Assembly (NCBI GenBank): GCA_035509435.1
Contig: DATJLR010000002.1
Span: forward strand, 209,677-273,676
From: Minisyncoccota bacterium
Lineage (GTDB): Bacteria > Patescibacteriota > Minisyncoccia > UBA6257 > 2-01-FULL-56-20
Direction of reading: 5' to 3'
DNA length: 64,000 nucleotides
Shown: piece by piece, positions 5,059 through 58,998 of the stretch
Numbering within the stretch: position 1 is the first letter of the stretch
Layout: the number at the start of each line of letters is the position of its first letter
Translations under genes and position numbers: made by a program
Notes under the pieces: generated by a model
What the model was told of the DNA's origin: nothing
The model's database searches: none
The model's input: the letters and a program-made list of their open reading frames with translations, nothing else

Positions 5059-5943
5059 TTACTCGTAGATGGTTCCCGTCGCCGTGCTGGTGGACGATGC
5101 GGGAGGGCATCCCGCAGTGCTTGTCGCGCCTGCCGGTATCATCGGGCAGGCAGCAGGGAGCGTTGCCGTGGAAGAGACGGTCGTTGTGGCCATCCCGAGT
5201 TCCGCTTCAAGCTGGATCGCGAGCGTTTCCAGTTGGTTCAATTCCGCCTGGAGCTCCGCGGTCGTGCTTGTTCCTGCCGTTATACCCGCCCCTGTCGTCA
5301 CCGTGCCGCCCGCGGATGATCGCGAGAGGTCGCGCACGATCTCTGCGTCCATCGTGCCGGTGCCGTCATAGTAGCCGTACACGTTGATCGCGTCTCCCGG
5401 CATGATGTTCGCGACCGCCATCGGCGTCCGGTCGTTTGCTTCCACCTGGGTCGCCGCGTCCACTACGACCGCATACGGATTATAGTAGGCGGGAGACGAG
5501 GTGGTGGAGGTCGGCGTCATCATGGGCGTCGCCACCGGACAGGCCACCGACGTTCCGATAGGCGAACTGTCCGTGATGAACTGTTCGCACGCCGCGCCGG
5601 ATGGCGGCACGGTCGCCATGACCTGCGTCACCGAAGTGCCCGATGCCGTCGTTCCAATGGATGCCACGGCCAGGCCGCTCATCTGCATATATTCCGCTGA
5701 GAGCGGATTTACGGCAGGCAAGGGCGCCGCGACCGTGGATGTCGCCGTCGCGGTCATCGCGGTGGACGTGCTTGACGATGCGGCCACGGTGGATGACGTG
5801 GTTGTTGTCGCGTTGATCACCGATGAGCTCGGTGTCGTGGTGCTTCCTGCGGGAAAAAGTTGCGCGTTGGCGATGCCGCCCGCCGCAACCATGATCCCGA
5901 ACGCCGCAATGATCGCGGCCATCATCATTATTTTTTTATACAT
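5059..5943 (-). CDS. Thr/Ser/Ala-rich secreted low-complexity (mucin-like) protein
   Basis: Signal peptide MYKKIMMMAAIIAAFGIMVAAGGIANA, long T/S/A tracts, and a short coiled-coil ELQAELNQLETLAIQLEAEL near the C-terminus. Confidence 0.55.
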   Translation of the reverse strand: MYKKIMMMAAIIAAFGIMVAAGGIANAQLFPAGSTTTPSSSVINATTTTSSTVAASSSTSTAMTATATSTVAAPLPAVNPLSAEYMQMSGLAVASIGTTASGTSVTQVMATVPPSGAACEQFITDSSPIGTSVACPVATPMMTPTSTTSSPAYYNPYAVVVDAATQVEANDRTPMAVANIMPGDAINVYGYYDGTGTMDAEIVRDLSRSSAGGTVTTGAGITAGTSTTAELQAELNQLETLAIQLEAELGMATTTVSSTATLPAACPMIPAGATSTAGCPPASSTSTATGTIYE

Positions 5944-7637: not shown

Positions 7638-7703
7638 GCTTTAAGTATATCAAAATCGTCTCATTTCGTAATTTTTTAATGTACGGATTGGTATAATGGT
7701 TCT

Positions 7704-8373: not shown

Positions 8374-9648
8374 ATGAGTCCTCTCGAGAGACATAGTTCC
8401 ATGCGAACTGAGGCCGCTTTTACTCTCATCGAGCTTCTCGTCGTGATCGCGATCATCGCCATTCTCGCGGTGGTCGTCGTGCTGACACTCAACCCGGCCG
8501 AGCTCCTGCGCCAGAGCAGAGACTCCAATCGATTGTCTGACCTCAGCACCATAAGTGACGCAGTGAACCTCTATAACACGGATCAAGGGGGAAACTCTTC
8601 CTACACCTTGGGGGTCGCCTCCGATACTTATCTTTCGATCCTCGATCCCACGGCTACATCCACGACATCAGGAAATCAATGTTCGGGAATTGGCGTCGCG
8701 AGTGCTCCCGGGACCTACAGTTATCATTGCTCAGCGAGCAGCACATATCGTAATATCAACGCAACCGGCTGGATCCCGGTCAATTTTTCGACGCTTTCCG
8801 CGGGATCTCCCATATCAAGTCTTCCTATCGATCCAATCAATCAGACAAGCTCCGACCTCTATTACACCTATCAGACGAACGGAAGCCTATACAAGATCAC
8901 CGCTTTCATGGAATCGAGTAAATATGCGAAAGCTGGCATTATGGATGGAGGCACCGATCCTACCGTTGCAGAATCAGGTTCGGGGGTTGCGGCCATTCCC
9001 GACGTGGGAAGAGGCCTTATAGGTGACTGGCCGCTCAATGAAGGGGCTGGGGGTGCTGCGATTGATTGGGGCGGCGGAATGAACAACGGGACGTGGGGCG
9101 GTACACAGGCCGGAAGTTCGACGTATTATGGCTCTGGCAATAATGTGTTCCAATGGTCCGGATATTTCAATGGAACCAACGATTATGTGAGCGGTGCAGG
9201 CCTTGTTAGTTTTGGAAGTAGCGCCAATGGCACTATCCTGGCATGGATCAAGCCGTCTTCGTTGCCGGCTACCCAGACGATCCTGAGGCAAGGATTGCTT
9301 GGACAGTGTTATAGTTATGCCGCGTCCCTTCGTGGATCGACGCTCTATTCGGGCGATACTAACGGCGACTTTCTGCTTGGAGGTACGATCGCCACCGGAA
9401 CATGGCAACAGATTGCGGTCGTATTCACTCCCAGCGGGTCGCAAGGGTTTGTGAACGGAGCTGCCGTAGGCAGTAATGCGGACGGCCCTACCAATTGTAG
9501 TTCCGCCCAGAATTATTTTGCCATCGGCGTACAGGGGTATAATGCATCGTCGGCGCTGTTCTTTTCCGGATCGATGAGCGACGTACGTGTGTACGCGCGC
9601 GCCCTTTCATCGGGCGAGATCCAGCAGATCTATAATGCAGAGAAATAG
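8374..9648 (+). CDS. type IV pilin-like protein with a C-terminal LamG/ConA-like lectin domain
   Basis: Prepilin-type N-terminal methylation motif FTLIELLVVIAIIAILAVVVVLTLNP. C-terminal LamG signature (…SMSDVRVYARALSSGEIQQIYN). Paralog of the ORF at 57712-58998. Confidence 0.8.
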   Translation: MSPLERHSSMRTEAAFTLIELLVVIAIIAILAVVVVLTLNPAELLRQSRDSNRLSDLSTISDAVNLYNTDQGGNSSYTLGVASDTYLSILDPTATSTTSGNQCSGIGVASAPGTYSYHCSASSTYRNINATGWIPVNFSTLSAGSPISSLPIDPINQTSSDLYYTYQTNGSLYKITAFMESSKYAKAGIMDGGTDPTVAESGSGVAAIPDVGRGLIGDWPLNEGAGGAAIDWGGGMNNGTWGGTQAGSSTYYGSGNNVFQWSGYFNGTNDYVSGAGLVSFGSSANGTILAWIKPSSLPATQTILRQGLLGQCYSYAASLRGSTLYSGDTNGDFLLGGTIATGTWQQIAVVFTPSGSQGFVNGAAVGSNADGPTNCSSAQNYFAIGVQGYNASSALFFSGSMSDVRVYARALSSGEIQQIYNAEK

Positions 9649-14449: not shown

Positions 14450-14513
14450 AAGGATATTTTAGCATACCACCATGCGTTTCCGGCCGCTGCCGCCGTGAAG
14501 TTTTCCCCAGCCC

Positions 14514-14542
14514 TTGCTTTTTTATTGAGGGCGTGGTATAGT
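14514..14542 (+). promoter_or_regulatory. sigma70-like promoter (TTGCTT-N17-TATAGT)
   Basis: Hexamers with 17-nt spacing upstream of the small ORF/sRNA locus. Confidence 0.35.
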
Positions 14543-14798
14543 GAAAAAAGAAGTTGCAGTTACCCCACAGTGGAGAAAAACAGTGGATGCAAACAGTGGC
14601 AAAGCAGTAGCGCCCAGTGCGGCCAGTATTACCAAGGATGCACACAAGCGGTCGCGTCAACGGACCTATCACCCGGCTTTCATGGAACCGCTGGATTCCA
14701 TCGGCGACATTGCCGCACGGGTTCGTGAGTCCGAGAGGTCTCCGGGGATGGAGGAGCTGTTCGGGCTTATCACCCTCAGCGAGGCCTTGGCTAACTGA
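14541..14798 (+). CDS. small hypothetical protein (85 aa from GTG) or an sRNA
   Basis: ORF in the corA-hrcA intergenic space with a GAGGG SD-like element 9 nt upstream. A strong intrinsic terminator follows at 14820-14853. The start is uncertain because the predicted -10 overlaps the GTG. Confidence 0.35.
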   Translation: MKKEVAVTPQWRKTVDANSGKAVAPSAASITKDAHKRSRQRTYHPAFMEPLDSIGDIAARVRESERSPGMEELFGLITLSEALAN

Positions 14799-14819
14799 TG
14801 GACACTGTGACCCATAAGC

Positions 14820-14853
14820 GGTCGAGACCCCAACTCGACCGCTTTCTTTTTTT
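14820..14853 (+). terminator. intrinsic terminator
   Basis: GGTCGAG-ACCCCAA-CTCGACC followed by GCTTTCTTTTTTTAT. Confidence 0.65.
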
Positions 14854-14881
14854 ATATTGTTTTAATGCGGCAAATGCCATA

Positions 14882-14908
14882 CTGGCACTCTCTTGACGAG
14901 ATTGCTAA
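14882..14908. promoter_or_regulatory. CIRCE-like inverted repeat (HrcA operator)
   Basis: CTGGCACTC-N9-GATTGCTAA matches TTAGCACTC-N9-GAGTGCTAA at 7/9 and 8/9. It overlaps a TTGACG(14893)-N16-TATAAT(14915) promoter just upstream of hrcA. Confidence 0.6.
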
Positions 14909-14928
14909 CGGCGGTATAATGAGCAGGC

Positions 14929-20898: not shown

Positions 20899-20971
20899 GC
20901 CCCCATAGCTCAGTCGGTAGAGCAGCTCCCTTTTAAGGAGAGGGTCCCAGGTTCGAATCCTGGTGGGGGCA
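20899..20971 (+). tRNA. tRNA-Lys (anticodon UUU)
   Basis: Cloverleaf folded by hand: acceptor GCCCCCA/TGGGGGC, D-arm GCTC/GAGC, anticodon loop CTTTTAA, T-arm CCAGG-TTCGAAT-CCTGG, discriminator A. CCA is not encoded. Confidence 0.85.
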
Positions 20972-21004: not shown

Positions 21005-21103
21005 CCTCGCTGCCGGCGGCAATGAGAGTGTCCCAGGTTCGGGAATCGGCAGCGAGGCAGTAATGAGAATAAATTCTCATTACTGCCGAGCGAACCGATT
21101 CAG
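21005..21103. repeat. compound hairpin/palindrome structure inside the 147-bp tRNA-Lys-adjacent insert
   Basis: An 11-bp stem CCTCGCTGCCG/CGGCAGCGAGG (21005-21057) encloses a copy of the tRNA T-arm half GTCCCAGGTTCG. A 32-nt perfect palindrome GGCAGTAATGAGAAT-AA-ATTCTCATTACTGCC (21056-21087) is flanked by GAATCGG/CCGATTC. Confidence 0.6.
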
Positions 21104-28475: not shown

Positions 28476-29084
28476 ATGATCACCATCAAGGGCGTCATCT
28501 TCGACATCGGCGGCGTGCTTCTCGACTCGGAGAAGTCGTTTGACGGCATATTCGAGGAATTCGCCCGCGCGCTCGGCGTGGATCCGGAGAAGATGGTGGC
28601 GCTCCACAAGCGTTATCTGGACCGGATGCTTTCCGGCAAAATGTCCGCAAAGCAATTTTTCAGCGCCATCAAGAAGGAGTTTCACTTAAAGCGTCGCGAT
28701 ATGGAAAAGGTCTGGCTCGCGATCGCGCTCAAGCATATCAAACTGAACAAGAAGCTGCTCGCGGTGACGGACAAGATGCGCGCGCACTACCGGCTCGCGC
28801 TGCTTTCGAACGTGAGCGAGCCGCGCTCGCTCGTGGACCGCGAGTTCGATCTCTACAGCCACTTCGATCAGGTGTTCCTTTCGTACAAATTGCACATGCA
28901 GAAGCCGTCCAAGCGCACGTTCCGGCACGCGCTCAAAAAAATGCGCCTCAAGACGAACGAAGCGCTCTTTATAGACGACAAGGAGATCAACCTGAACGCC
29001 GCCCGCGCGCTTGGCATCCAGTCCATCCAGTTCAACAACAATGCACAGCTCCTCACGGAACTCGCGCGCCTCGGTTTGGTATAA
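28476..29084 (+). CDS. HAD-superfamily hydrolase
   Basis: Motif I FDIGGVLLD and a C-terminal ALFIDDKEINLNAARALG. Confidence 0.75.
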   Translation: MITIKGVIFDIGGVLLDSEKSFDGIFEEFARALGVDPEKMVALHKRYLDRMLSGKMSAKQFFSAIKKEFHLKRRDMEKVWLAIALKHIKLNKKLLAVTDKMRAHYRLALLSNVSEPRSLVDREFDLYSHFDQVFLSYKLHMQKPSKRTFRHALKKMRLKTNEALFIDDKEINLNAARALGIQSIQFNNNAQLLTELARLGLV

Positions 29085-29147
29085 TTATAGTAAAGGGAAA
29101 AGGTCGAAATAGGGGATAGAAACACGCTATTTTATTTCATCATTACT

Positions 29148-41830: not shown

Positions 41831-42079
41831 GTGTGGTATAATGAATGCATGGATATATTAAACACGGGTGGTGCGGGGCTTGCGTCGTTCGGGCCGTGGT
41901 TGCTGGTGCTTATCGTGTGGAGCTTATTCTGGAAAGGTCTTGCGCTCTGGCATTCCGGCCGCCGCGGTGAGCCGTGGTGGTTCGTGATCATGCTTGTGAT
42001 CAACACCGTCGGCATCCTGGAGATCATTTATCTCTTCGCCGTGTGCAAGCTGAAGTTCGGGGAACTGTTCAAGAAATAA
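41831..42079 (+). CDS. hypothetical small membrane protein
   Basis: 82-aa ORF with 2 TM helices. Confidence 0.4.
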   Translation: MWYNECMDILNTGGAGLASFGPWLLVLIVWSLFWKGLALWHSGRRGEPWWFVIMLVINTVGILEIIYLFAVCKLKFGELFKK

Positions 42080-42136: not shown

Positions 42137-43654
42137 TTAATTTATATCAAAGACATCCGTGTTCGGCGTTTCTGCCGGGATGCTGCTTGTTTGGTTCGGC
42201 AGAAGGTAGTGGATGTTCCGCGCCGCGGCGTCCGCGGCGGTAAAGGAGTGCGTGACGAACATCGTCGTTTCCGCGGGCACGGGGATCCCGCGCGCAAGGA
42301 CGCCGCCCGCGTTCACGACCACATATTTGGGCGTGCTCGTGGGGAGCGCGTTCATCTCATCGCCGATCGTCACGTAGTTCGCGCTGAACGCGCCCGGCAC
42401 ATTCGGATTTTTTGCCCACACCACAAAGTAGTCGTAGTAGCCGAACACGCCGACGACGACGAGCAGGACGATCATGAGCGATTTCGCCGCGTTCGTGTTC
42501 CAGTGTTTTTCGATCAGCCGATAGAGCCACATGCCCGCGAGCGCGGCGAGGATGAGCGCGGGGTCGAGCGCGAGGATGGAGCGCAACGCGTGCGGGATGC
42601 CTTCGTCCGATGCCGCCGCAGGCAGGATCCCGCACGCGAGCCACGCGATGACGAGCAATGTGCCGAAGAGCGGGAACAATTTTTCATCCGCCGCATTCAC
42701 ATATTTTTTACGCCGCCGCCGGACCCAGAAATAGATCACGAGCACGATGCCGAGCAGGAATAGGATCCCCACCGGCAAAAACAGTTCCGGGGCGCCGCTG
42801 ATGTTCTGCCGCCAGTTATAGTCGCCGTGATAGTTGAACATCAAAAGCTCTTTGCCGATGTTCACCGCAAAGTCGTGGACCGGATTCGACGCCGCGGTGA
42901 CGGCGATCTGCGCCGTGCGGCCAAAGAAGCTTCCTGGTGTCGTCGCGAAATACCATCCGATCGGCGCGGCCACGATGAACGTGACAACGATAAAAAGTGC
43001 CGCGCGCTTCCAAAAGCCCGGCATTTTCCGGAAGAAGGGGATAAAGAGCAAGAACAGGAGCGGCGTGATGCGGTAGGCGATATAGGTATAGAATCCCAGG
43101 CCATAAATGACGCCGGCGGCCGCGGCATACCACAGTGCCGCCCTCTTATTGCCGGAGCGGAATGCTTTTGTGATGAGCCACAGCGCCCACACGAGCATGA
43201 GCGGCGCCAGGATCGCGCGGAATCCGATGCGCGAAAAAATAACACCCCAAAAACTGGTGGCGAGCAAAAAAGAAGCGAGCAACCCCGGGCCATTACCAAA
43301 GAGCTCCGCCACGAGCAGATATAATCCCCAGACCGTGAGCACGCCCGCGACGGCCGCGGGCAGGCGCACGATCCACGGCTCGGTAGTAGGCCATACCTTG
43401 AGGACGACCGCCAGGATGTTTATATAGAGCCCTTCGCGGCCGTTGTCTTCCGGATAGAAGACCTTGAAGTGGCCCGTCTCCGCCACTTCCGTGGCGTTGT
43501 TCCCGTTCATCCCTTCATCCGGATAGAGTCCTGGCGGCACGCTCGTGAAATGGTAGAACCGGAGGAAGGTTGCTATAATCAATATACCCGTGAGCAGGGT
43601 ATAACGTTCGGACTTGGACATTCCTTCTATTATATCAAATGGACACCTCGCCAA
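42137..43654 (-). CDS. GT-C fold membrane glycosyltransferase (ArnT/PMT family 39-like)
   Basis: Polytopic 505-aa protein. N-terminus FLRFYHFTSVPPGLYPDEGMN is typical of the ArnT/PMT family. The alternative start at 43621 avoids overlap with the divergent gene. Confidence 0.7.
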   Translation of the reverse strand: MARCPFDIIEGMSKSERYTLLTGILIIATFLRFYHFTSVPPGLYPDEGMNGNNATEVAETGHFKVFYPEDNGREGLYINILAVVLKVWPTTEPWIVRLPAAVAGVLTVWGLYLLVAELFGNGPGLLASFLLATSFWGVIFSRIGFRAILAPLMLVWALWLITKAFRSGNKRAALWYAAAAGVIYGLGFYTYIAYRITPLLFLLFIPFFRKMPGFWKRAALFIVVTFIVAAPIGWYFATTPGSFFGRTAQIAVTAASNPVHDFAVNIGKELLMFNYHGDYNWRQNISGAPELFLPVGILFLLGIVLVIYFWVRRRRKKYVNAADEKLFPLFGTLLVIAWLACGILPAAASDEGIPHALRSILALDPALILAALAGMWLYRLIEKHWNTNAAKSLMIVLLVVVGVFGYYDYFVVWAKNPNVPGAFSANYVTIGDEMNALPTSTPKYVVVNAGGVLARGIPVPAETTMFVTHSFTAADAAARNIHYLLPNQTSSIPAETPNTDVFDIN

Positions 43655-44061
43655 ACTTTGAGAACGCGCTTGAAGCGGATATGAAAACGCTTGCGGCGGA
43701 GATCAAGCGCGCGCAGGAATTAAAAGATGTTAAAAACGCGGCGGGGGTGGAGGTCGTAAAGGAGGCGATCCGGGCGTTCCCGCAACTGGAGCGTTCATCG
43801 AGCAACGGCGTTCCGACGCCGCCCACGCCCGGCGGCGCAGGCGCGCCGACGGATACCAACCCTTTGCCCGCGTACGCGCAGAGCGCGCCGCCCGAGGTCA
43901 AGCTGGAGATCGAGTACCTGATCGATGTCGCGCTGCATAAAGGAATCGCCACCGCCCTCACCGAGTCGCAGAAGTCGCCGTATTTCGTGCAGGACGCGTT
44001 CCACGACGCGCTCGCGGGAAAGTTATATCCCGAATTGCAGCGGCGCGGGGTGGTACAATAA
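43639..44061 (+). CDS. hypothetical protein (140 aa)
   Basis: Helical N-terminus and a Pro-rich linker. It ends 7 nt before the VirD4-like gene. Confidence 0.45.
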   Translation: MDTSPNFENALEADMKTLAAEIKRAQELKDVKNAAGVEVVKEAIRAFPQLERSSSNGVPTPPTPGGAGAPTDTNPLPAYAQSAPPEVKLEIEYLIDVALHKGIATALTESQKSPYFVQDAFHDALAGKLYPELQRRGVVQ

Positions 44062-44067
44062 GATCAC

Positions 44068-46476
44068 ATGGCGGCTTTTTACATCTTTCTCGGCATCGTG
44101 GTCGGAGCAGTCGCCATTGTCGTGATATTTTTTGTCGTCCGCGCCGCGGGGCGCCGTCGCATTTTCGATTCCCTGAGGACCTCGCTTTTTTTGATAAAGG
44201 TCCCCAAAGCTGCGCCGGCGGACCAGGCAAAATCGGGAGGAGGCGAGGGGGGAGATTTCAAGACGGAGATCGCGCACTTTGAGCAGTTGCTCGGAAGCCT
44301 TACGTCGATCAAACGGCCGGTGATCTTCGAGATCGCCGTGCCGCACGTGGGAGAGGAGATCCACTTCTATATCGGTGTGCCGAAACTTTCCGCCGAGACC
44401 GCGATAAAACAGATCCAGGGATTGTGGAACGGCGCGAGCGTGGAGCTCGTCCAGGACGATTTCAACATCTTCAACCCGAACGGCGCGACCGCGGCGGCGT
44501 ACGTCGCCCAGAAGGAAAACGTCGCGTTGCCGGTGAGAACGTACGCGGAACTCGGCGTTGATACTTTTGAATCCATCGTCGGCGCGTTCGCAAAGATCAG
44601 CGAGATCGGGGAAGGCGCGTCGCTCCAGATTCTCCTGCGTCCCGCGCCGAGCGGCTACAAAAAAGAGATCAGCCATCACATCGAATCGCTCAAAAAAGGC
44701 GAGCCGATCAAAAAAGTGCTCGGGCGCGGGATCGCGTCCGGCGTGAGCGTGTCGAACGTCGCCGACGTCTTCAATCCGAAAACAAAAGAGCAGCAGGCGG
44801 AGGAGAAAAGCAATCGCGTGGTGGATGACGAGGCGGTGAAGGCGCTCCAACTGAAGATCGCAAAGCCGCTCTTTGAGGTGAACCTGCGGCTCGTGGCGTC
44901 GGCGGGATCGCCTTTTCAGGCGAACGATATTCTGGATGGCCTCACGGCCGGTTTCAGCCAATTTGGCAGCCCGATGCGCAACGAATTCCGGATCGTAAAG
45001 CCGCGGAATCCAAAGAATATCGTGAATGATTTTATTTACCGCATTTTTGACGGCGGCGAGAAGATGGTGCTCTCGGCCGAGGAGATCGCGAGCATCTACC
45101 ACCTGCCGATCTCGTCCACGGAGACGCCGCGCGTAAAGTGGCTGAAGGCAAAGGAAGCCGCGCCGCCGGAGAATCTGCCCACGAGCGGGATCCTGATCGG
45201 GGACGCGACGTTCCGCGGCACCGCGAAGCCGGTGTATATCACGGACGACGACCGGCGCCGCCACATCTACGTGATCGGACAGACCGGCACCGGTAAATCC
45301 ACGCTGCTCGGCAACATGATCATAGAGGATATCCAGTCGGGCAAGGGGGTCGCGATCATCGATCCGCACGGCGACCTTGTTGAGAACGCGCTCGGCTTCG
45401 TGCCGAAGGAGCGGCTGGATGACGTGATCTATTTCAATCCCGGCGACCTCGAGCGCCCGCTCGGCCTCAATATGATCGATTTCAATCCGGCGCGGCCGGA
45501 GGAGAAGACATTCATCGTGAACGAAATGCAGAGCATCTTCAACAAGCTGTTCTCGCAGGAAACGATGGGCCCGATGTTCGAGCAGTATATGCGCAACGCG
45601 CTGCTCCTTTTGATGGAGGATTCCGCGAACGAACCGGCCACGCTCGTGGAGGTGCCGCGCATATTCACTGACTCGCAGTACCGCACGCGCAAGCTCGCGC
45701 GCATCCATAATCCCGTCGTCATCGACTTCTGGGAAAAGGAGGCCGTCAAAGCCGGCGGCGAAGCGTCGCTCGCGAACATGACGCCGTACATCACCTCAAA
45801 GTTCAATAACTTCATTTCGAACGACTATATGCGGCCGATCATCGGCCAGCCAAAGTCCGCGTTCAACTTCCGCGAGGTGATGGACAGCAAAAAGATCCTG
45901 CTCATCAATCTTTCCAAGGGCAAGATAGGGGACATCAACGCCGGGCTTCTCGGCATGGTCTTCACCGGCAAGATCCTCATGGCCGCGCTCTCGCGCGTGG
46001 ACATCGCGGACGCCGACAAGCGCACCGACTTCAACCTATATATAGATGAGTTCCAGAACTTTACGACCGATTCCATCGCGACGATCCTCTCCGAGGCGCG
46101 CAAATACCGGCTCAACCTCACGATGGCGCACCAGTTCATCGCCCAGCTGGAGGACAAGATCAAGAACGCTGTCTTCGGCAACGTCGGCTCCGAGCTCGTG
46201 TTCCGCGTGGGTGTCCAGGACGCCGAATTCCTCGTAAAGCAGTTCGAGCCCGTGTTCAACCAGAACGATCTCGTGAACATCGACAACCTCAACGCCTATG
46301 CAAAAATTTTGATCAACGGGCAGACGTCAAAACCGTTCAACCTCAAGATCGCCACCACGTCATGGGGCGGCGGCGACAAGGCGCTTGCGGAGAAGCTCAA
46401 AGAATATTCCCGCACCAAGTACGGCCAGGACCGCCAGGTGATCGAAGACGATATCTATAGAAGGTTGAGGGCATAG
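44068..46476 (+). CDS. VirD4/TraG/TraD-like type IV coupling-protein-family ATPase
   Basis: N-terminal TM helix, Walker A GQTGTGKSTLLGN, Walker B LYIDEFQNF and the sensor-like motif EARKYRLNLTMAHQ. Confidence 0.6.
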   Translation: MAAFYIFLGIVVGAVAIVVIFFVVRAAGRRRIFDSLRTSLFLIKVPKAAPADQAKSGGGEGGDFKTEIAHFEQLLGSLTSIKRPVIFEIAVPHVGEEIHFYIGVPKLSAETAIKQIQGLWNGASVELVQDDFNIFNPNGATAAAYVAQKENVALPVRTYAELGVDTFESIVGAFAKISEIGEGASLQILLRPAPSGYKKEISHHIESLKKGEPIKKVLGRGIASGVSVSNVADVFNPKTKEQQAEEKSNRVVDDEAVKALQLKIAKPLFEVNLRLVASAGSPFQANDILDGLTAGFSQFGSPMRNEFRIVKPRNPKNIVNDFIYRIFDGGEKMVLSAEEIASIYHLPISSTETPRVKWLKAKEAAPPENLPTSGILIGDATFRGTAKPVYITDDDRRRHIYVIGQTGTGKSTLLGNMIIEDIQSGKGVAIIDPHGDLVENALGFVPKERLDDVIYFNPGDLERPLGLNMIDFNPARPEEKTFIVNEMQSIFNKLFSQETMGPMFEQYMRNALLLLMEDSANEPATLVEVPRIFTDSQYRTRKLARIHNPVVIDFWEKEAVKAGGEASLANMTPYITSKFNNFISNDYMRPIIGQPKSAFNFREVMDSKKILLINLSKGKIGDINAGLLGMVFTGKILMAALSRVDIADADKRTDFNLYIDEFQNFTTDSIATILSEARKYRLNLTMAHQFIAQLEDKIKNAVFGNVGSELVFRVGVQDAEFLVKQFEPVFNQNDLVNIDNLNAYAKILINGQTSKPFNLKIATTSWGGGDKALAEKLKEYSRTKYGQDRQVIEDDIYRRLRA

Positions 46477-46494
46477 AGGAGTTTGTGGTATAGT
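46465..46494 (+). promoter_or_regulatory. sigma70-like promoter (TTGAGG-N18-TATAGT)
   Basis: Overlaps the last codons of the VirD4-like gene, upstream of the mini-ORF. Confidence 0.35.
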
Positions 46495-46563
46495 AAAGAC
46501 TGCTCCGTAACCTTCCCCAAACCTGCTCAAGGGTGCGGAGACTATCGCATACGAGGTCGCACA

Positions 46564-46647
46564 ATGGTGAGATATGGCGGTTACGACACTCGCGTCGACA
46601 CCTGGGACCTGAACGGTGGCGGCACCAACAAGGGCGGCGGTACCTGA
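46564..46647 (+). CDS. mini-ORF (27 aa, Gly-rich)
   Basis: MVRYGGYDTRVDTWDLNGGGTNKGGGT. A GAGGT SD lies 7 nt upstream and a strong terminator lies downstream. Could equally be an sRNA. Confidence 0.3.
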   Translation: MVRYGGYDTRVDTWDLNGGGTNKGGGT

Positions 46648-46662
46648 TCGCAACAGCGGCTC

Positions 46663-46707
46663 GCGCCGCAGATCCTCCTTAGGGTCTGCGGCGCATATTT
46701 TTTATTT
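46663..46707 (+). terminator. intrinsic terminator
   Basis: GCGCCGCAGATC-CTCCTTA-GGGTCTGCGGCGC followed by ATATTTTTTATTT. Confidence 0.7.
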
Positions 46708-46719
46708 ACATCCCGCGAT

Positions 46720-48006
46720 CTACATCCGCTGCCAAGCCTTGAACGCTTTCCACGGCGACATGATCATCAGCAAATAATTGAACTCCACAAGGCGGCTGAA
46801 CTCCCAGCCGGGCCAGCCGGAAAAGATGAACGGCCCAAATTTTGCAGCCGCCCAGCGTTCACCGATCGGGATCACGTAGGGATATTCTGCGGGGACATAT
46901 GTCTTGTTGCGCGGCGAGTAGGCATGGCCGTTTCCCGCGATATCCGCCTCCGCTTTTTTTATCTCTTCCACCAGATTGTGCGCGGCGATCGCGCCTTCTA
47001 GTATCGCGACGTGCGCCACCGCGGGCACGGGGCGCTGGGTCTTCGGGTCCATAAAGCATACATTGTCGCCGATCGCGTAGACCATCGGCGCGAACTTGAG
47101 GTCGGGCGTGCCCGGCAGGCAGACCATATCGCTTTCCGCCATCGGCTTGCCGCGTTTGTCTTTGGAGAGGGGCACGGCGGTCAGGAGATCCGGCGTCTTC
47201 GTGCCGCCGGTCCAGATCAGGATGTCGAACGGGATGGGCGCGGGCGGGGGGAGCGGCGGTGCGCCTGCCGCCGCTGCCGGAGCGCCGATCGTGATCGTGT
47301 TCTCCGACACCGACTCGATCTTCATGTTGGTCATCACCGGGATCTTCAGCCGCGCAAGGCGCTCCATGGCGATCGCGATCACGCGCGGCGCGAAGCCGGG
47401 CAAGATCGTGGGCATCGCTTCCACGATGGAGACGGTCACGTGCAGGGCCGGATTTTTCTTTTCTTCTTTGTTTGCCCACAAGCGGAGCTCTGCGGCGAGC
47501 TCGATGCCGTTCGGGCCGCCACCGCCAGCCACGATGCGCACGTCGCCGCCTTTTGCGAACGCGGCCGAGACGGCGGCGCGGATCTCCACCGCGCTCTCAA
47601 GCGTTTTTAACTGAAGAGAATGTTCCTTGAGTCCCGGGATGCCGAAGTAGTTTGTCTCGGAGCCGAGCGCGATCACAAGATAGTCGGCATGGATCGTGCG
47701 CCCGTCCTTGAGCGCGATCACGCCGCCCGCGACGTCCGGCGAAACGATCTCGCCCTGCACGAACGTGATGGGCATTCCCTTGAGTAGCGTCGCGATGTCG
47801 TACGAACAACTGTTCACATTCTCCGGCTCCGGCCGCGCGGCAACTTTATAGAGGAGGGGAATGAAGATATGGCAGTCGTTGCGGTCAATGAGCGTCACGG
47901 CATAGCGGTCGAGCAGCTTCAGGCGCCCGAGCTCGCGCGCGATGTCCATCGCCGCGCGAAGGCCGCCGAATCCGGCGCCGAGTATCACGACATTCTTCTT
48001 CTCCAT
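46720..48006 (-). CDS. NAD(P)/FAD-dependent oxidoreductase (type II NADH dehydrogenase-like)
   Basis: Two Rossmann dinucleotide-binding motifs (VVILGAGFGGL and a second GGGPNGIE). Confidence 0.75.
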   Translation of the reverse strand: MEKKNVVILGAGFGGLRAAMDIARELGRLKLLDRYAVTLIDRNDCHIFIPLLYKVAARPEPENVNSCSYDIATLLKGMPITFVQGEIVSPDVAGGVIALKDGRTIHADYLVIALGSETNYFGIPGLKEHSLQLKTLESAVEIRAAVSAAFAKGGDVRIVAGGGGPNGIELAAELRLWANKEEKKNPALHVTVSIVEAMPTILPGFAPRVIAIAMERLARLKIPVMTNMKIESVSENTITIGAPAAAAGAPPLPPPAPIPFDILIWTGGTKTPDLLTAVPLSKDKRGKPMAESDMVCLPGTPDLKFAPMVYAIGDNVCFMDPKTQRPVPAVAHVAILEGAIAAHNLVEEIKKAEADIAGNGHAYSPRNKTYVPAEYPYVIPIGERWAAAKFGPFIFSGWPGWEFSRLVEFNYLLMIMSPWKAFKAWQRM

Positions 48007-48100
48007 TCCTTCATTATAGCCGGATTTGACTTATTTATATAATAAATGTATAATACAAGGCAGAATCTTGAATTGCGCGAAAAGCGCGGAGGAAAGCGTT

Positions 48101-48631
48101 ATGTGCCTTGACGTAGCAAATTCGATGGCCGCACAGTGGTATGCCCTGGTTGAGCTCGCTGGACTGCTCGGCAGGGAAATTCCAACACAATCCGTGAAGA
48201 AACATTCGAAGGGCGACAGCTGTCTGAAGCGGCGCCAGCGCAAGCAGAAGTGCGACGGCCTCATTGAGGAAGCCGTGGGGCTCTACCGGATCGCTTACGA
48301 CCTGTTCTGGAACGAAATGAAAGAGCCAAGCCGGCAGCGCCTCGAGGAGTTGCGGAACGTGGCGGGTCGGTTGTATAACGGCCTGGCGATCTCTCCTGAT
48401 AGCGCATGGGCATTCGGAGTGGTGAACGATCACTTCGCTTCCGCAATGAACGCTCTTTCCGCGGATCCTGTCAGCGAACCGCAGAAAGTTGTCGATGGCT
48501 TTCGGGAAATTCCAAAGGCCATCAAAGTGCTCCAGTGGCACAACGACAACCATTTGCGCATCAGTTTCGACCCGCGTCGGCACAAGCCGCCGACCCGAGT
48601 CGTCGCAGGGCTTCACCTGCGGACCGCATAG
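48101..48631 (+). CDS. hypothetical protein
   Basis: Start refined to ATG 48101 behind a GGAGG SD. Terminator hairpin at 48644-48687. Confidence 0.45.
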   Translation: MCLDVANSMAAQWYALVELAGLLGREIPTQSVKKHSKGDSCLKRRQRKQKCDGLIEEAVGLYRIAYDLFWNEMKEPSRQRLEELRNVAGRLYNGLAISPDSAWAFGVVNDHFASAMNALSADPVSEPQKVVDGFREIPKAIKVLQWHNDNHLRISFDPRRHKPPTRVVAGLHLRTA

Positions 48632-48702
48632 ACACAACCCGATGGCGGGTCACTCAGTAACACGAGTGGCTCGCCGTCTTTTTTTCTGATAAAATAAAGG
48701 AG

Positions 48703-57674: not shown

Positions 57675-57711
57675 CGGGAAGCGCCTGCGGGACGCGTGAT
57701 ATAATTTTTCT

Positions 57712-58998
57712 ATGCGCGCACCAGGCCCTTTCCGGCAGAGGAAGGGTTTTACCCTTATTGAACTCCTCGTGGTCATCGCGATCATCGCCATTCTGGCGGT
57801 CGTCGTTGTTTTGACATTGAACCCGTCGGAGCTTTTGAAGCAGTCGCGGGATTCCAACCGCATCTCCGACATGGCAACGCTCAGTTCCGCGCTCAGCCTG
57901 TATTCCACGGACCAGTCCGGAGGGTCGGGGTTTTCCATGGGTACGCCGGGCTGGGTTTATGTTTCCATTCCTGATCCGCAGGCGACCTCCACGGCGGGAG
58001 ACCAGTGCCAAGGGCTCGGCCTGCCGACGCTTCCTGCGGGATACGCCTATCATTGCGCCGCGTCGTCCACCGTCCGGAGCGTCACGAACGCCGGATGGGT
58101 TCCGGTGAATTTCGCGGCGATCTCGTCTGGGGCGCCGCTCAGCTCGCTGCCGTTGGATCCGGTGAACGCTTCGTCCTCGCGCCTTTATTACACGTACGAA
58201 ACGAACGGCACGCAGTATGAAGTGACGGCAGTGATGGAGTCGCAGAAATACAAAGCGGGAGGAAGCGGCGATGTGATCACGCCTGACGGCGGACGGCTCG
58301 CCTCGGTATACGAAAAGGGGACCGCGCTCGGCCTTGAGCCGCTCGATTACGGCGACGCCTCGCTTGTCGGGTTCTGGCCGATGGATGAAGGATCCGGCAC
58401 GGTCGCGTACGACGACTCCGGCAGCAATGCGACCGGCACATGGAACGGCGGACAGGTGGGAACGGCAAGCGGCTATTACAGCGCGGGGAAAATCGGATCA
58501 TATGCCGGCGCCTTCGACGGGTCGAGCACCTATCTTGCGAACACCGGGAACAATCCGGCGCTTGTGCTCACGAACGCCATGACGCTCGTTGCGTGGGTGA
58601 AGGTGAACGCGTCGGGCACGGACATGAAGGTGATCTCCAAGAGGCCGTCGTACGTGCTTACCGTCTTCAGCAATAACATTCCGGAGACGGAGATATTCAT
58701 CGGAGGCACTTCAAAAGACACGCGCAGCGCAAGCGGCGGCACGACGCTCGTGAACGGCGTATGGTACCAGCTCGCGGGCACATATAACGGCAGTACGCTT
58801 ACTACGTACGTGAACGGCGTGCTTGACCGCCAGATCTCCGTAAGCGGCACGATGGACAGCACGGCGTACGTCCTTGACCTTGGGAAGACCGCCGACGGCA
58901 CGAATGCCAATTTCAACGGCCTTATTGATGACGCGCGGGTGTATAACCGGGCCCTGTCCGCCGCGGAAATAGCGGCGCTCTATAACGGCGGCAAGTAA
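57712..58998 (+). CDS. type IV pilin-like protein with a C-terminal LamG/ConA-like domain (paralog of 8374-9648)
   Basis: GFTLIELLVVIAIIAILAVVVVLTLNP prepilin motif and the LamG C-terminus (…DDARVYNRALSAAEIAALYNGGK). Confidence 0.8.
   Translation: MRAPGPFRQRKGFTLIELLVVIAIIAILAVVVVLTLNPSELLKQSRDSNRISDMATLSSALSLYSTDQSGGSGFSMGTPGWVYVSIPDPQATSTAGDQCQGLGLPTLPAGYAYHCAASSTVRSVTNAGWVPVNFAAISSGAPLSSLPLDPVNASSSRLYYTYETNGTQYEVTAVMESQKYKAGGSGDVITPDGGRLASVYEKGTALGLEPLDYGDASLVGFWPMDEGSGTVAYDDSGSNATGTWNGGQVGTASGYYSAGKIGSYAGAFDGSSTYLANTGNNPALVLTNAMTLVAWVKVNASGTDMKVISKRPSYVLTVFSNNIPETEIFIGGTSKDTRSASGGTTLVNGVWYQLAGTYNGSTLTTYVNGVLDRQISVSGTMDSTAYVLDLGKTADGTNANFNGLIDDARVYNRALSAAEIAALYNGGK

Follow-up and report, generated by a model that had tools for sequence, protein, structure and literature searches.

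Homologues of the VirD4-type coupling proteins (T4CPs) of type IV secretion systems (T4SSs) are numerous in Patescibacteria. A recent survey (Quinonero-Coronel et al. 2025, PMC12102498) counts 5,713 of them in 2,918 patescibacterial genomes, with virB4 nearby in only 148 cases. In the same survey, the patescibacterial virB4 is usually found near dnaA/dnaN, together with TrsD and VirB3/6/8, and exaptation of the coupling proteins is raised, as the T4CP copy of S. epibionticum is not essential. Patescibacteria depend on other cells, and in S. epibionticum, a genetically tractable species, a T4SS cluster is essential and contains no recognisable coupling or relaxase proteins (Wang et al. 2023, PMC10633639). 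Thousands of orphan T4CP homologues are encoded elsewhere in patescibacterial genomes (PMC12102498). Here we describe one such locus in a stretch of 64,000 nucleotides (nt) from contig DATJLR010000002.1 of assembly GCA_035509435.1, referred to as the window, to which all coordinates refer. It is a chromosomal segment from a member of the Paceibacterota (Parcubacteria; Candidate Phyla Radiation (CPR)/Patescibacteria). The locus contains a 140-residue protein (p140), an 802-residue ATPase and a 27-residue mini open reading frame (mini-ORF), all on the + strand, the layout that an earlier note on this DNA, made from the sequence alone, had given. We consider it likely that p140 and the ATPase, which is of the T4CP family, form an operon, and that the mini-ORF belongs to a separate, young, strain-level transcription unit located in a hypervariable slot.

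The ATPase (44068–46476, +) contains the sequence features noted earlier. The three motifs GQTGTGKST (residues 404–412), DEFQNF (660–665) and EARKYRLN..HQ (676–689) are invariant or nearly so among 42 homologues, and a single N-terminal transmembrane (TM) segment is predicted from hydropathy and the structural model at about residues 4–30 (44077–44157, +), with a 19-residue Kyte–Doolittle maximum of 3.28 at residues 6–24. The AlphaFold model (pLDDT 73) is composed of a long N-terminal helix (residues 2–36), an α/β domain (approximately 38–345) and a RecA-like nucleotide-binding domain (NBD). In the model the P-loop NBD spans residues 380–802 (+ strand) and has an all-helical insert at approximately 477–606. 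An exact-sequence protein look-up of the ATPase returned no record; that of p140 led to an independent assembly with an identical copy.

The assignment to the TraG/VirD4 type made in the earlier note was supported by several comparisons. Four Pfam families match above their gathering scores: T4SS-DNA_transf (34.5 bits, cut-off 20.1), DUF87 (38.5 bits), TraG-D_C and TrwB_AAD_bind, the last restricted to the P-loop region. A search of PDB sequences with the 42-homologue profile yielded TrwB first (4e-5), followed by a 9x1l chain deposited as 'DNA helicase' (a HerA–NurA complex entry) and then by DotL. The best NCBIfam matches are TraD (49.8 bits, cut-off 366) and CD1115 (34 bits, cut-off 250), with CedD and TrbC also found, all of them far below the equivalog cut-offs. 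When the model was compared with the PDB using Foldseek, full-length TrwK/VirB4 came first (E=5e-16) and TrwB next (E about 1e-11), the TrwB-deltaN70 chain aligning to the model with TMt 0.58–0.65, a value for the whole chain and not for the insert alone; other matches were HerA, Cag-beta, DotL and SIR2-HerA. The earlier note had named FtsK/HerA-type housekeeping translocases as the alternative grouping. The FtsK model scores 16.5 bits, under its cut-off, the HerA equivalog model reaches 17.5 bits (cut-off 970), and no NurA-like neighbour was found in the 80 related loci described below. Grouping of the ATPase with T4 coupling proteins, not with FtsK or HerA housekeeping translocases, is thus supported.

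The region of about 350 residues between the TM helix and the NBD, called an unknown domain in the earlier note, proved to be a named Pfam family, DUF8128 (PF26449), present in the precomputed annotation and covering residues 28–375 (44149–45192, +). Only noise-level matches were obtained for this domain with an older Pfam copy, which predates DUF8128, and a search of the literature yielded nothing on the family. Its predicted structure, a step that the note had proposed, has the fold of a VirB4-type N-terminal domain: VirB4/TrwK chains are the sole Foldseek matches at E<=1e-3, and the modelled fold is VirB4-like, not a HAS barrel. The same architecture was found on plasmids. A tblastn search detected full-length homologues of the ATPase, with 80–91% coverage, on Bacillus, Streptomycetaceae and haloarchaeal plasmids. 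In the two plasmids that were inspected in detail (B. subtilis NZ_CP154917 and Embleya NZ_CP108778), the homologue directly adjoins a Replic_Relax relaxase and a separate AAA_10/TraC-type VirB4 is encoded in the same operon, which places the homologue in the position of the coupling protein. The N-terminal domain of the ATPase alone aligns to both plasmid proteins (E=4e-8). We conclude that the ATPase represents a T4CP lineage that keeps an ancestral VirB4-like N-terminal domain.

At least 7089 homologues of the ATPase were found, and the best 120 clusters show 71–95% identity. Scanning one genome per species gave a species-level set of 80 loci with 54–89% identity, labelled Paceibacterota, Parcubacteria, Lipton-, Wolfe- or Harrisonbacteria, or simply “bacterium”; among the rows many carry the label Saccharibacteria and one Spirochaetia. 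The common gene order in this set is PMT_2, p140, ATPase, (ndh), pgk, a divergent PMT_2 glycosyltransferase being present in 34 loci, a downstream pgk in 23 and ndh in 13. Judged from these comparisons, the ATPase gene belongs to the chromosome of Paceibacterota, where it is strongly conserved and vertically inherited. The genes of the window are of the housekeeping kind (DnaK, DnaJ, DnaB, CysRS, SMC, PBP2, MreB, YchF, MnmA, PGK) and, as the earlier note had stated, no T4SS genes accompany the ATPase among the 25 window ORFs scanned with Pfam, which took in every ORF of >=600 residues and most of the largest ones. Relaxase and mating-pair formation (VirB4, VirB6) genes were absent from the scanned window ORFs and from the ±4 kb around the ATPase in the 80 loci; VirB3/VirB6/VirB8-type neighbours were likewise not found in the scanned ORFs or the 80 loci, nor pilus-assembly genes in the scanned ORFs or related loci. 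This orphan context matches the descriptions in PMC10633639 and PMC12102498, and the ATPase therefore belongs to a known and recently surveyed kind, the orphan T4CPs of Patescibacteria.

The partner protein, p140 (43639–44061, +), is a soluble protein of 140 residues in which no TM segment was detected. A homologue is found by tblastn upstream of the ATPase in 71 of the 80 loci. In 69 of the 70 loci for which 450 nt or more of upstream sequence are available, p140 lies within 4 kb upstream on the same strand, and in about 64 of these it abuts or overlaps the start of the ATPase; the distance from the p140 stop to the ATPase start is usually 1–12 nt. The family comprises 487 representatives at 50% clustering, all of them standalone proteins of about 120–150 residues. 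Its alignment shows a conserved N-terminal helix region (E8, E12, D14 ... KEAIRAFP), a variable Pro-rich linker in the middle part, a SPLPAYAQ motif in which LPxYA is invariant, and a strongly conserved C-terminal region, EVKLEIEYL...KSPYFVQDAFHDALAG.LYPEL. Searches of p140 against Pfam, NCBIfam, PADLOC and PDB sequence profiles gave no match, and the family looks unreported. This synteny and alignment confirm p140 as a real, conserved partner of the ATPase, and its co-transcription with the ATPase, already proposed in the earlier note, is strongly supported by the conserved abutting arrangement.

Candidate promoters at the locus were sought with an organism-specific extended −10 motif. The form TGNTATAAT occurs 11 times in the window against 0.48 expected and the variant TGNTATAGT three times against 0.22 expected. 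A generic sigma-70 scan shows no enrichment in the region, with 3 sites against 1.4 expected. Most copies are located 6–8 nt before the start codons of long ORFs, a spacing which suggests that many genes of this host are expressed as leaderless mRNAs. For the p140–ATPase operon, motif search and position point to the extended −10 box TGCTATAAT (43571–43579, +) as the putative promoter; it lies 59 nt 5′ of the p140 ATG and overlaps the region of the divergent PMT_2 gene. A further, internal box, TGGTACAAT (44051–44059, +), is found 8 nt before the ATPase ATG; in this strain, the ATPase might be transcribed from it without a leader. It is kept in only 9 of 67 relatives and is thus optional or strain-specific.

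Boxes resembling TGNTATAAT, enriched about 20-fold, are located throughout the window, for example at 1760–1768, 2575–2583, 7689–7697, 14464–14456 (−), 41834–41842, 43637–43629 (−), 48687–48695 and 57697–57705. Two more extended −10 sites, TGGTATAGT at 14534–14542 (region 14450–14928) and TGGTATAAT at 29077–29085 (region 29077–29126), are followed neither by a start codon at leaderless spacing nor by an obvious ORF, and could mark further small transcripts; Rfam found nothing in either region. The PMT_2 and p140 genes diverge at 43619–43654. With the ATG at 43621 (MSKSERY) as the PMT_2 start, the one used in relatives whose PMT_2 has 494 residues, only about 17 nt would separate the two starts. 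The extended −10 boxes of the two genes overlap on opposite strands, forming a very compact bidirectional promoter. On the other side of the ATPase, in 11 distant relatives with 55–60% identity (L032, L041, L043, L045, L046, L058, L060, L063, L064, L067 and L073), a membrane protein of about 146–214 residues starts 1–13 nt past the ATPase stop. We take this protein to be GtrA-like from the motif GKFAAVGTLNTL.D..VLN only; no homologue of it was found in the window. The PMT_2 and GtrA-like neighbours hint at a recurrent link to envelope glycosylation genes.

Between the ATPase and the convergent ndh gene, at 46477–46719, lies the compact unit to which the earlier note had drawn attention. Its sequence is found with 100% identity over 301 bases in an independent Logan assembly (L098), so that the unit is no assembly artefact. 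Both the promoter and the strong terminator that had been ascribed to it were recovered by scanning. The promoter, TTGAGG-N18-TATAGT with an upstream TG (46465–46494, +), has its −35 element inside the last codons of the ATPase, and its extended −10 is TGGTATAGT (46486–46494, +). This promoter is probably real, since its extended −10 is of the type that occurs far more often in the window than expected, and mostly at gene starts. No start codon follows this box at leaderless distance, which suggests a transcript starting near 46501 with a leader of about 63–65 nt. A Shine–Dalgarno sequence, GAGGT (46553–46557, +), with a spacer of 6 nt precedes the Gly-rich mini-ORF MVRYGGYDTRVDTWDLNGGGTNKGGGT (46564–46647, +), whose 27-residue product, if translated, would be hydrophilic, with no signal peptide or hydrophobic segment. 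The intrinsic terminator (46663–46704, +; hairpin 46663–46694) has a 14-bp stem with 10 GC pairs, a 4-nt loop and the T-tract ATATTTTTTA, and ends 16 nt before the convergent ndh stop (46720). Its function is the most certain in the unit: it ends + strand transcripts, whether they start in the unit or read through from the ATPase operon, before they reach ndh.

The earlier suggestion that the mini-ORF, or a small RNA (sRNA) in its place, could be a substrate, signal or regulator of the translocase found no support in conservation. The unit is not syntenic in the 80 species-level genomes or in a relative with 91% identity. Searches by blastn, tblastn and tblastx with the unit and with both versions of its ORF gave only chance-level matches in 80–92 related loci, no repeat copy of the unit was found in the window, and the 54-residue frame, back-translated and scanned against the JGI metagenome collection, gave 465 pattern matches, none of them a relative. 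The Rfam check was equally empty: at E<=1 nothing matched in 46300–46900, and across the whole window only two tRNAs reach the gathering score. The folding z-score, calculated against shuffled sequences, is −3.19 with the terminator hairpin and +0.74 without it (46500–46660), so that the whole folding signal comes from the hairpin and the body of the unit has no excess structure, folding no better than shuffled sequence. An SRP (signal recognition particle)-like or 6S-like RNA was considered for the unit and dropped, there being no covariance-model match and no excess structure in the body.

Similarity to a relative was detected in just one part of the unit, a block in the leader, AACCTTCCCCAAACCTGCTCAAGGGTGCGGA (46508–46539, +), through local alignment with the relative L090 (24/31 identities, z=3.9, reached by 0 of 300 shuffles). 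When this block was used to scan the metagenome collection, only the contig of L090 itself and two chance matches inside unrelated coding sequence were retrieved. L090 and L096, both with 88% identity, are the two among approximately 10 lineages at 86–95% identity, and the only relatives, in which a unit of the same layout was found. In both, an extended −10 is located 7–9 nt past the ATPase stop, a Shine–Dalgarno-led ATG follows at +78 to +87, and then comes a terminator. Their ORFs encode 45 or 42 residues, and no alignment is possible between these two peptides or between either of them and that of the window. In the 91%-identical relative the unit is missing and the convergent ndh lies 18 nt past the ATPase stop; L002 (86% identical) likewise has ndh directly after the ATPase and no unit. 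By this comparison of relatives, the ATPase–pgk interval is a hypervariable slot. The most plausible reading of the unit itself is a small gene or sRNA of recent, strain-level origin, with a terminator, and not a conserved companion of the ATPase.

Other occupants of the interval were observed. In the 95%-identical L081, the 59 nt past the ATPase stop (5149–5207, up to the contig end) read as a prepilin-like N-terminus, MHPGNSPKGFTLI, which may belong to a pilin gene or to a variant of the unit, and this sequence has the 9-mer TTCCCCAAA in common with the leader of the window unit. A fast-evolving orphan family of 150–200 residues fills the interval in L022, L089, L091, L092 and L001, several of its members ending in a CSC..G.D.RW motif. 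The window protein hyp201 (48026–48631, +) is a weak member of the family (E=0.002 to the L022 copy), with no match in Pfam, NCBIfam or PADLOC.

Several points weigh against a coupling-protein operon with an unrelated young unit behind it. The NCBIfam cut-offs for TraD, CD1115 and similar families are missed widely, which on sequence scores makes the ATPase a member of a distant subfamily; with no T4SS, relaxase or substrate gene nearby, in the window or in the 80 loci, its coupling role is putative. Classical T4CPs typically have two TM helices, but only one is predicted here, and the very high conservation of the ATPase is more in keeping with housekeeping than with conjugation. The interaction between p140 and the ATPase is deduced from synteny only. 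The organism-typical promoter motif, together with the two relatives that have the same layout, may mean that the unit is a real, fast-evolving small gene and not noise. Another reading takes the 802-residue protein as the VirB4 of the host, its main T4SS ATPase, with the TM helix and N-terminal domain corresponding to a VirB3–VirB4 fusion. We regard this as quite unlikely. Sequence profiles favour T4CP families, the TIGR00929 model (VirB4_CagE) reaches 17.8 bits against a cut-off of 643, and there is no AAA_10 or CagE match; moreover, the full-length plasmid homologue adjoins a relaxase and co-occurs with a separate AAA_10/TraC-type VirB4. VirB3/6/8 neighbours are missing, and PMC12102498 places the patescibacterial virB4 usually near dnaA/dnaN, with TrsD and VirB3/6/8. 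A role in anti-phage defence, as a HerA-type component or one like mad8 of the MADS system, is extremely improbable. It would account for a PADLOC match to mad8 (E=3.9e-14, residues 386–744), weaker matches to HerA models and the SIR2-HerA match in Foldseek, but the common FtsK/HerA superfamily explains this similarity. The ATPase gene belongs to the syntenic, vertically inherited core and not to an island, p140 and the other neighbours have no PADLOC matches, and neither further mad genes nor Sir2 or nuclease partners are found; the defence reading was rejected on synteny and vertical inheritance.

A more serious alternative, possible although on the whole somewhat unlikely, is that p140 and the ATPase form a T4SS-independent housekeeping translocase exapted from a T4CP, the coupling label then reflecting only ancestry; its role could be in DNA uptake, in segregation or in an export tied to envelope glycosylation. 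The chromosomal location of the gene among housekeeping genes, its 55–95% identity across a class and the DUF87 and HerA-type matches agree with such a history, as do the divergent PMT_2 in 34 of the 80 loci and the GtrA-like protein directly after the ATPase in the 11 distant ones; PMC12102498, with only 148 of 5,713 patescibacterial T4CPs near virB4, already proposes exaptation. No positive evidence points to an alternative substrate, however, the glycosylation neighbours may just be inherited gene order, and T4CP genes are often far from virB4 in any case, according to the same text. With respect to the downstream unit, a working small gene that serves the translocase is very doubtful; in that reading the slot promoter would drive diversifying secreted T4SS/T4CP substrates or effectors, either peptides of 27–45 residues or the orphan proteins of 150–200 residues. 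The repeated layout in the window, L090 and L096 (promoter 7–9 nt past the stop, Shine–Dalgarno-led ORFs at +78 to +87, terminators), the strongly non-random promoter motif, the leader block common to L090 and the 150–200-residue family in the same interval of other close relatives are in its favour. Against them, the slot is empty in the relatives at 91% and 86% identity, the unit was not found in the 80 species-level loci or in the metagenome scans, the peptides are unalignable, that of the window has no signal sequence or hydrophobic segment, and the conserved part is the leader and not the ORF. Only adjacency links the unit to the ATPase. The mini-ORF is a strain-level feature and no good candidate for a translocase partner. 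A broader proposal combines these ideas: p140 and the DUF8128 T4CP as a vertically inherited two-component translocase, taken over by Paceibacterota from conjugation for a host-dependent life, p140 as a new class of T4CP adaptor or regulator and the downstream slot, with its promoter at a conserved position, as a cassette of diversifying small substrates or effectors. We consider it unlikely; if true, it would concern the traffic of effectors or of DNA/nucleotides in the host-dependent lifestyle.

In the reading that we prefer, a p140–T4CP operon with a separate small unit behind it, the ATPase would form a hexameric ring at the membrane like TrwB, anchored by its single TM helix, and ATP hydrolysis would allow it to recruit and push a substrate, either DNA or protein. 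The VirB4-like N-terminal domain may dock to membrane partners. The substrate would enter a Patescibacteria-type T4SS encoded elsewhere in the genome, which is the route that we favour, or would take an exapted, T4SS-independent one. p140, a soluble helical protein that contains a Pro-rich linker, is most likely a cytoplasmic adaptor or regulator bound to the ATPase, which would make it an analogue of CagZ on Cag-beta and of the DotL adaptors.

Elsewhere in the window, two paralogous proteins of about 425 residues (8374–9648 and 57712–58998, +) contain a prepilin N-terminal methylation motif and a Laminin_G_3 (concanavalin-like) domain. They resemble large pilin-like adhesins, and a homologue is found 3′ of the ATPase in L014. 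ARAGORN reports a tRNA-Stop with anticodon tta at 20899–20971 (+), but in the canonical register (anticodon loop CTTTTAA) the gene is an ordinary tRNA-Lys(UUU) and therefore gives no evidence for stop-codon recoding. A 12-nt segment of its T-arm, GTCCCAGGTTCG, is repeated about 60 nt 3′ of the tRNA (about 21029–21040) and could be an old integration scar.

Regarding known systems, the ATPase has in common with TrwB (R388), TraD and VirD4 the P-loop NBD of the FtsK/HerA superfamily, the predicted N-terminal membrane anchor and the TraG-D_C region, and the all-helical insert of its modelled NBD may be a counterpart of theirs; TrwB is its best solved relative by sequence, with a fold TMt of up to 0.65. 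It differs from these proteins in the additional VirB4-like domain of about 350 residues between the TM helix and the NBD, and in being chromosomal and highly conserved, with one predicted TM helix and without relaxase or mating-pair formation genes nearby. Its full-length architecture, N-terminal domain included, is shared by the DUF87-type T4CPs of Gram-positive and actinobacterial plasmids, such as WP_345805471.1 of B. subtilis (NZ_CP154917) and WP_331738717.1 of Embleya (NZ_CP108778), with 23–28% identity over 83–91%; whereas the plasmid proteins are encoded inside conjugation operons, the window ATPase is preceded by p140. Compared with TrwK/VirB4 (R388), the NBD is closer to T4CPs by sequence, the VirB4 profile is not reached and VirB3/6/8 neighbours are lacking. 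The complexes of CagZ with Cag-beta and of DotL with its adaptors offer a parallel for a small protein encoded beside a T4CP, as is p140, and the fold search with the ATPase retrieved both Cag-beta/CagZ (8dol) and DotL (6sz9); no similarity of p140 itself to CagZ or another solved protein was detected, and the analogy is a functional speculation only. The orphan VirD4-type T4CPs of Patescibacteria, abundant and nearly always far from virB4, are by the description in the available text of PMC12102498 the same phenomenon, although a VirB4-like N-terminal domain and a conserved 140-residue partner are not described in that text. For one large orphan family of Paceibacterota, the present analysis adds to that picture a VirB4-like N-terminal domain, an architecture common to plasmid T4CPs adjacent to relaxases and a near-constant, small, unannotated partner, so that p140 and DUF8128 provide concrete handles on the function of the orphan T4CPs of the CPR.

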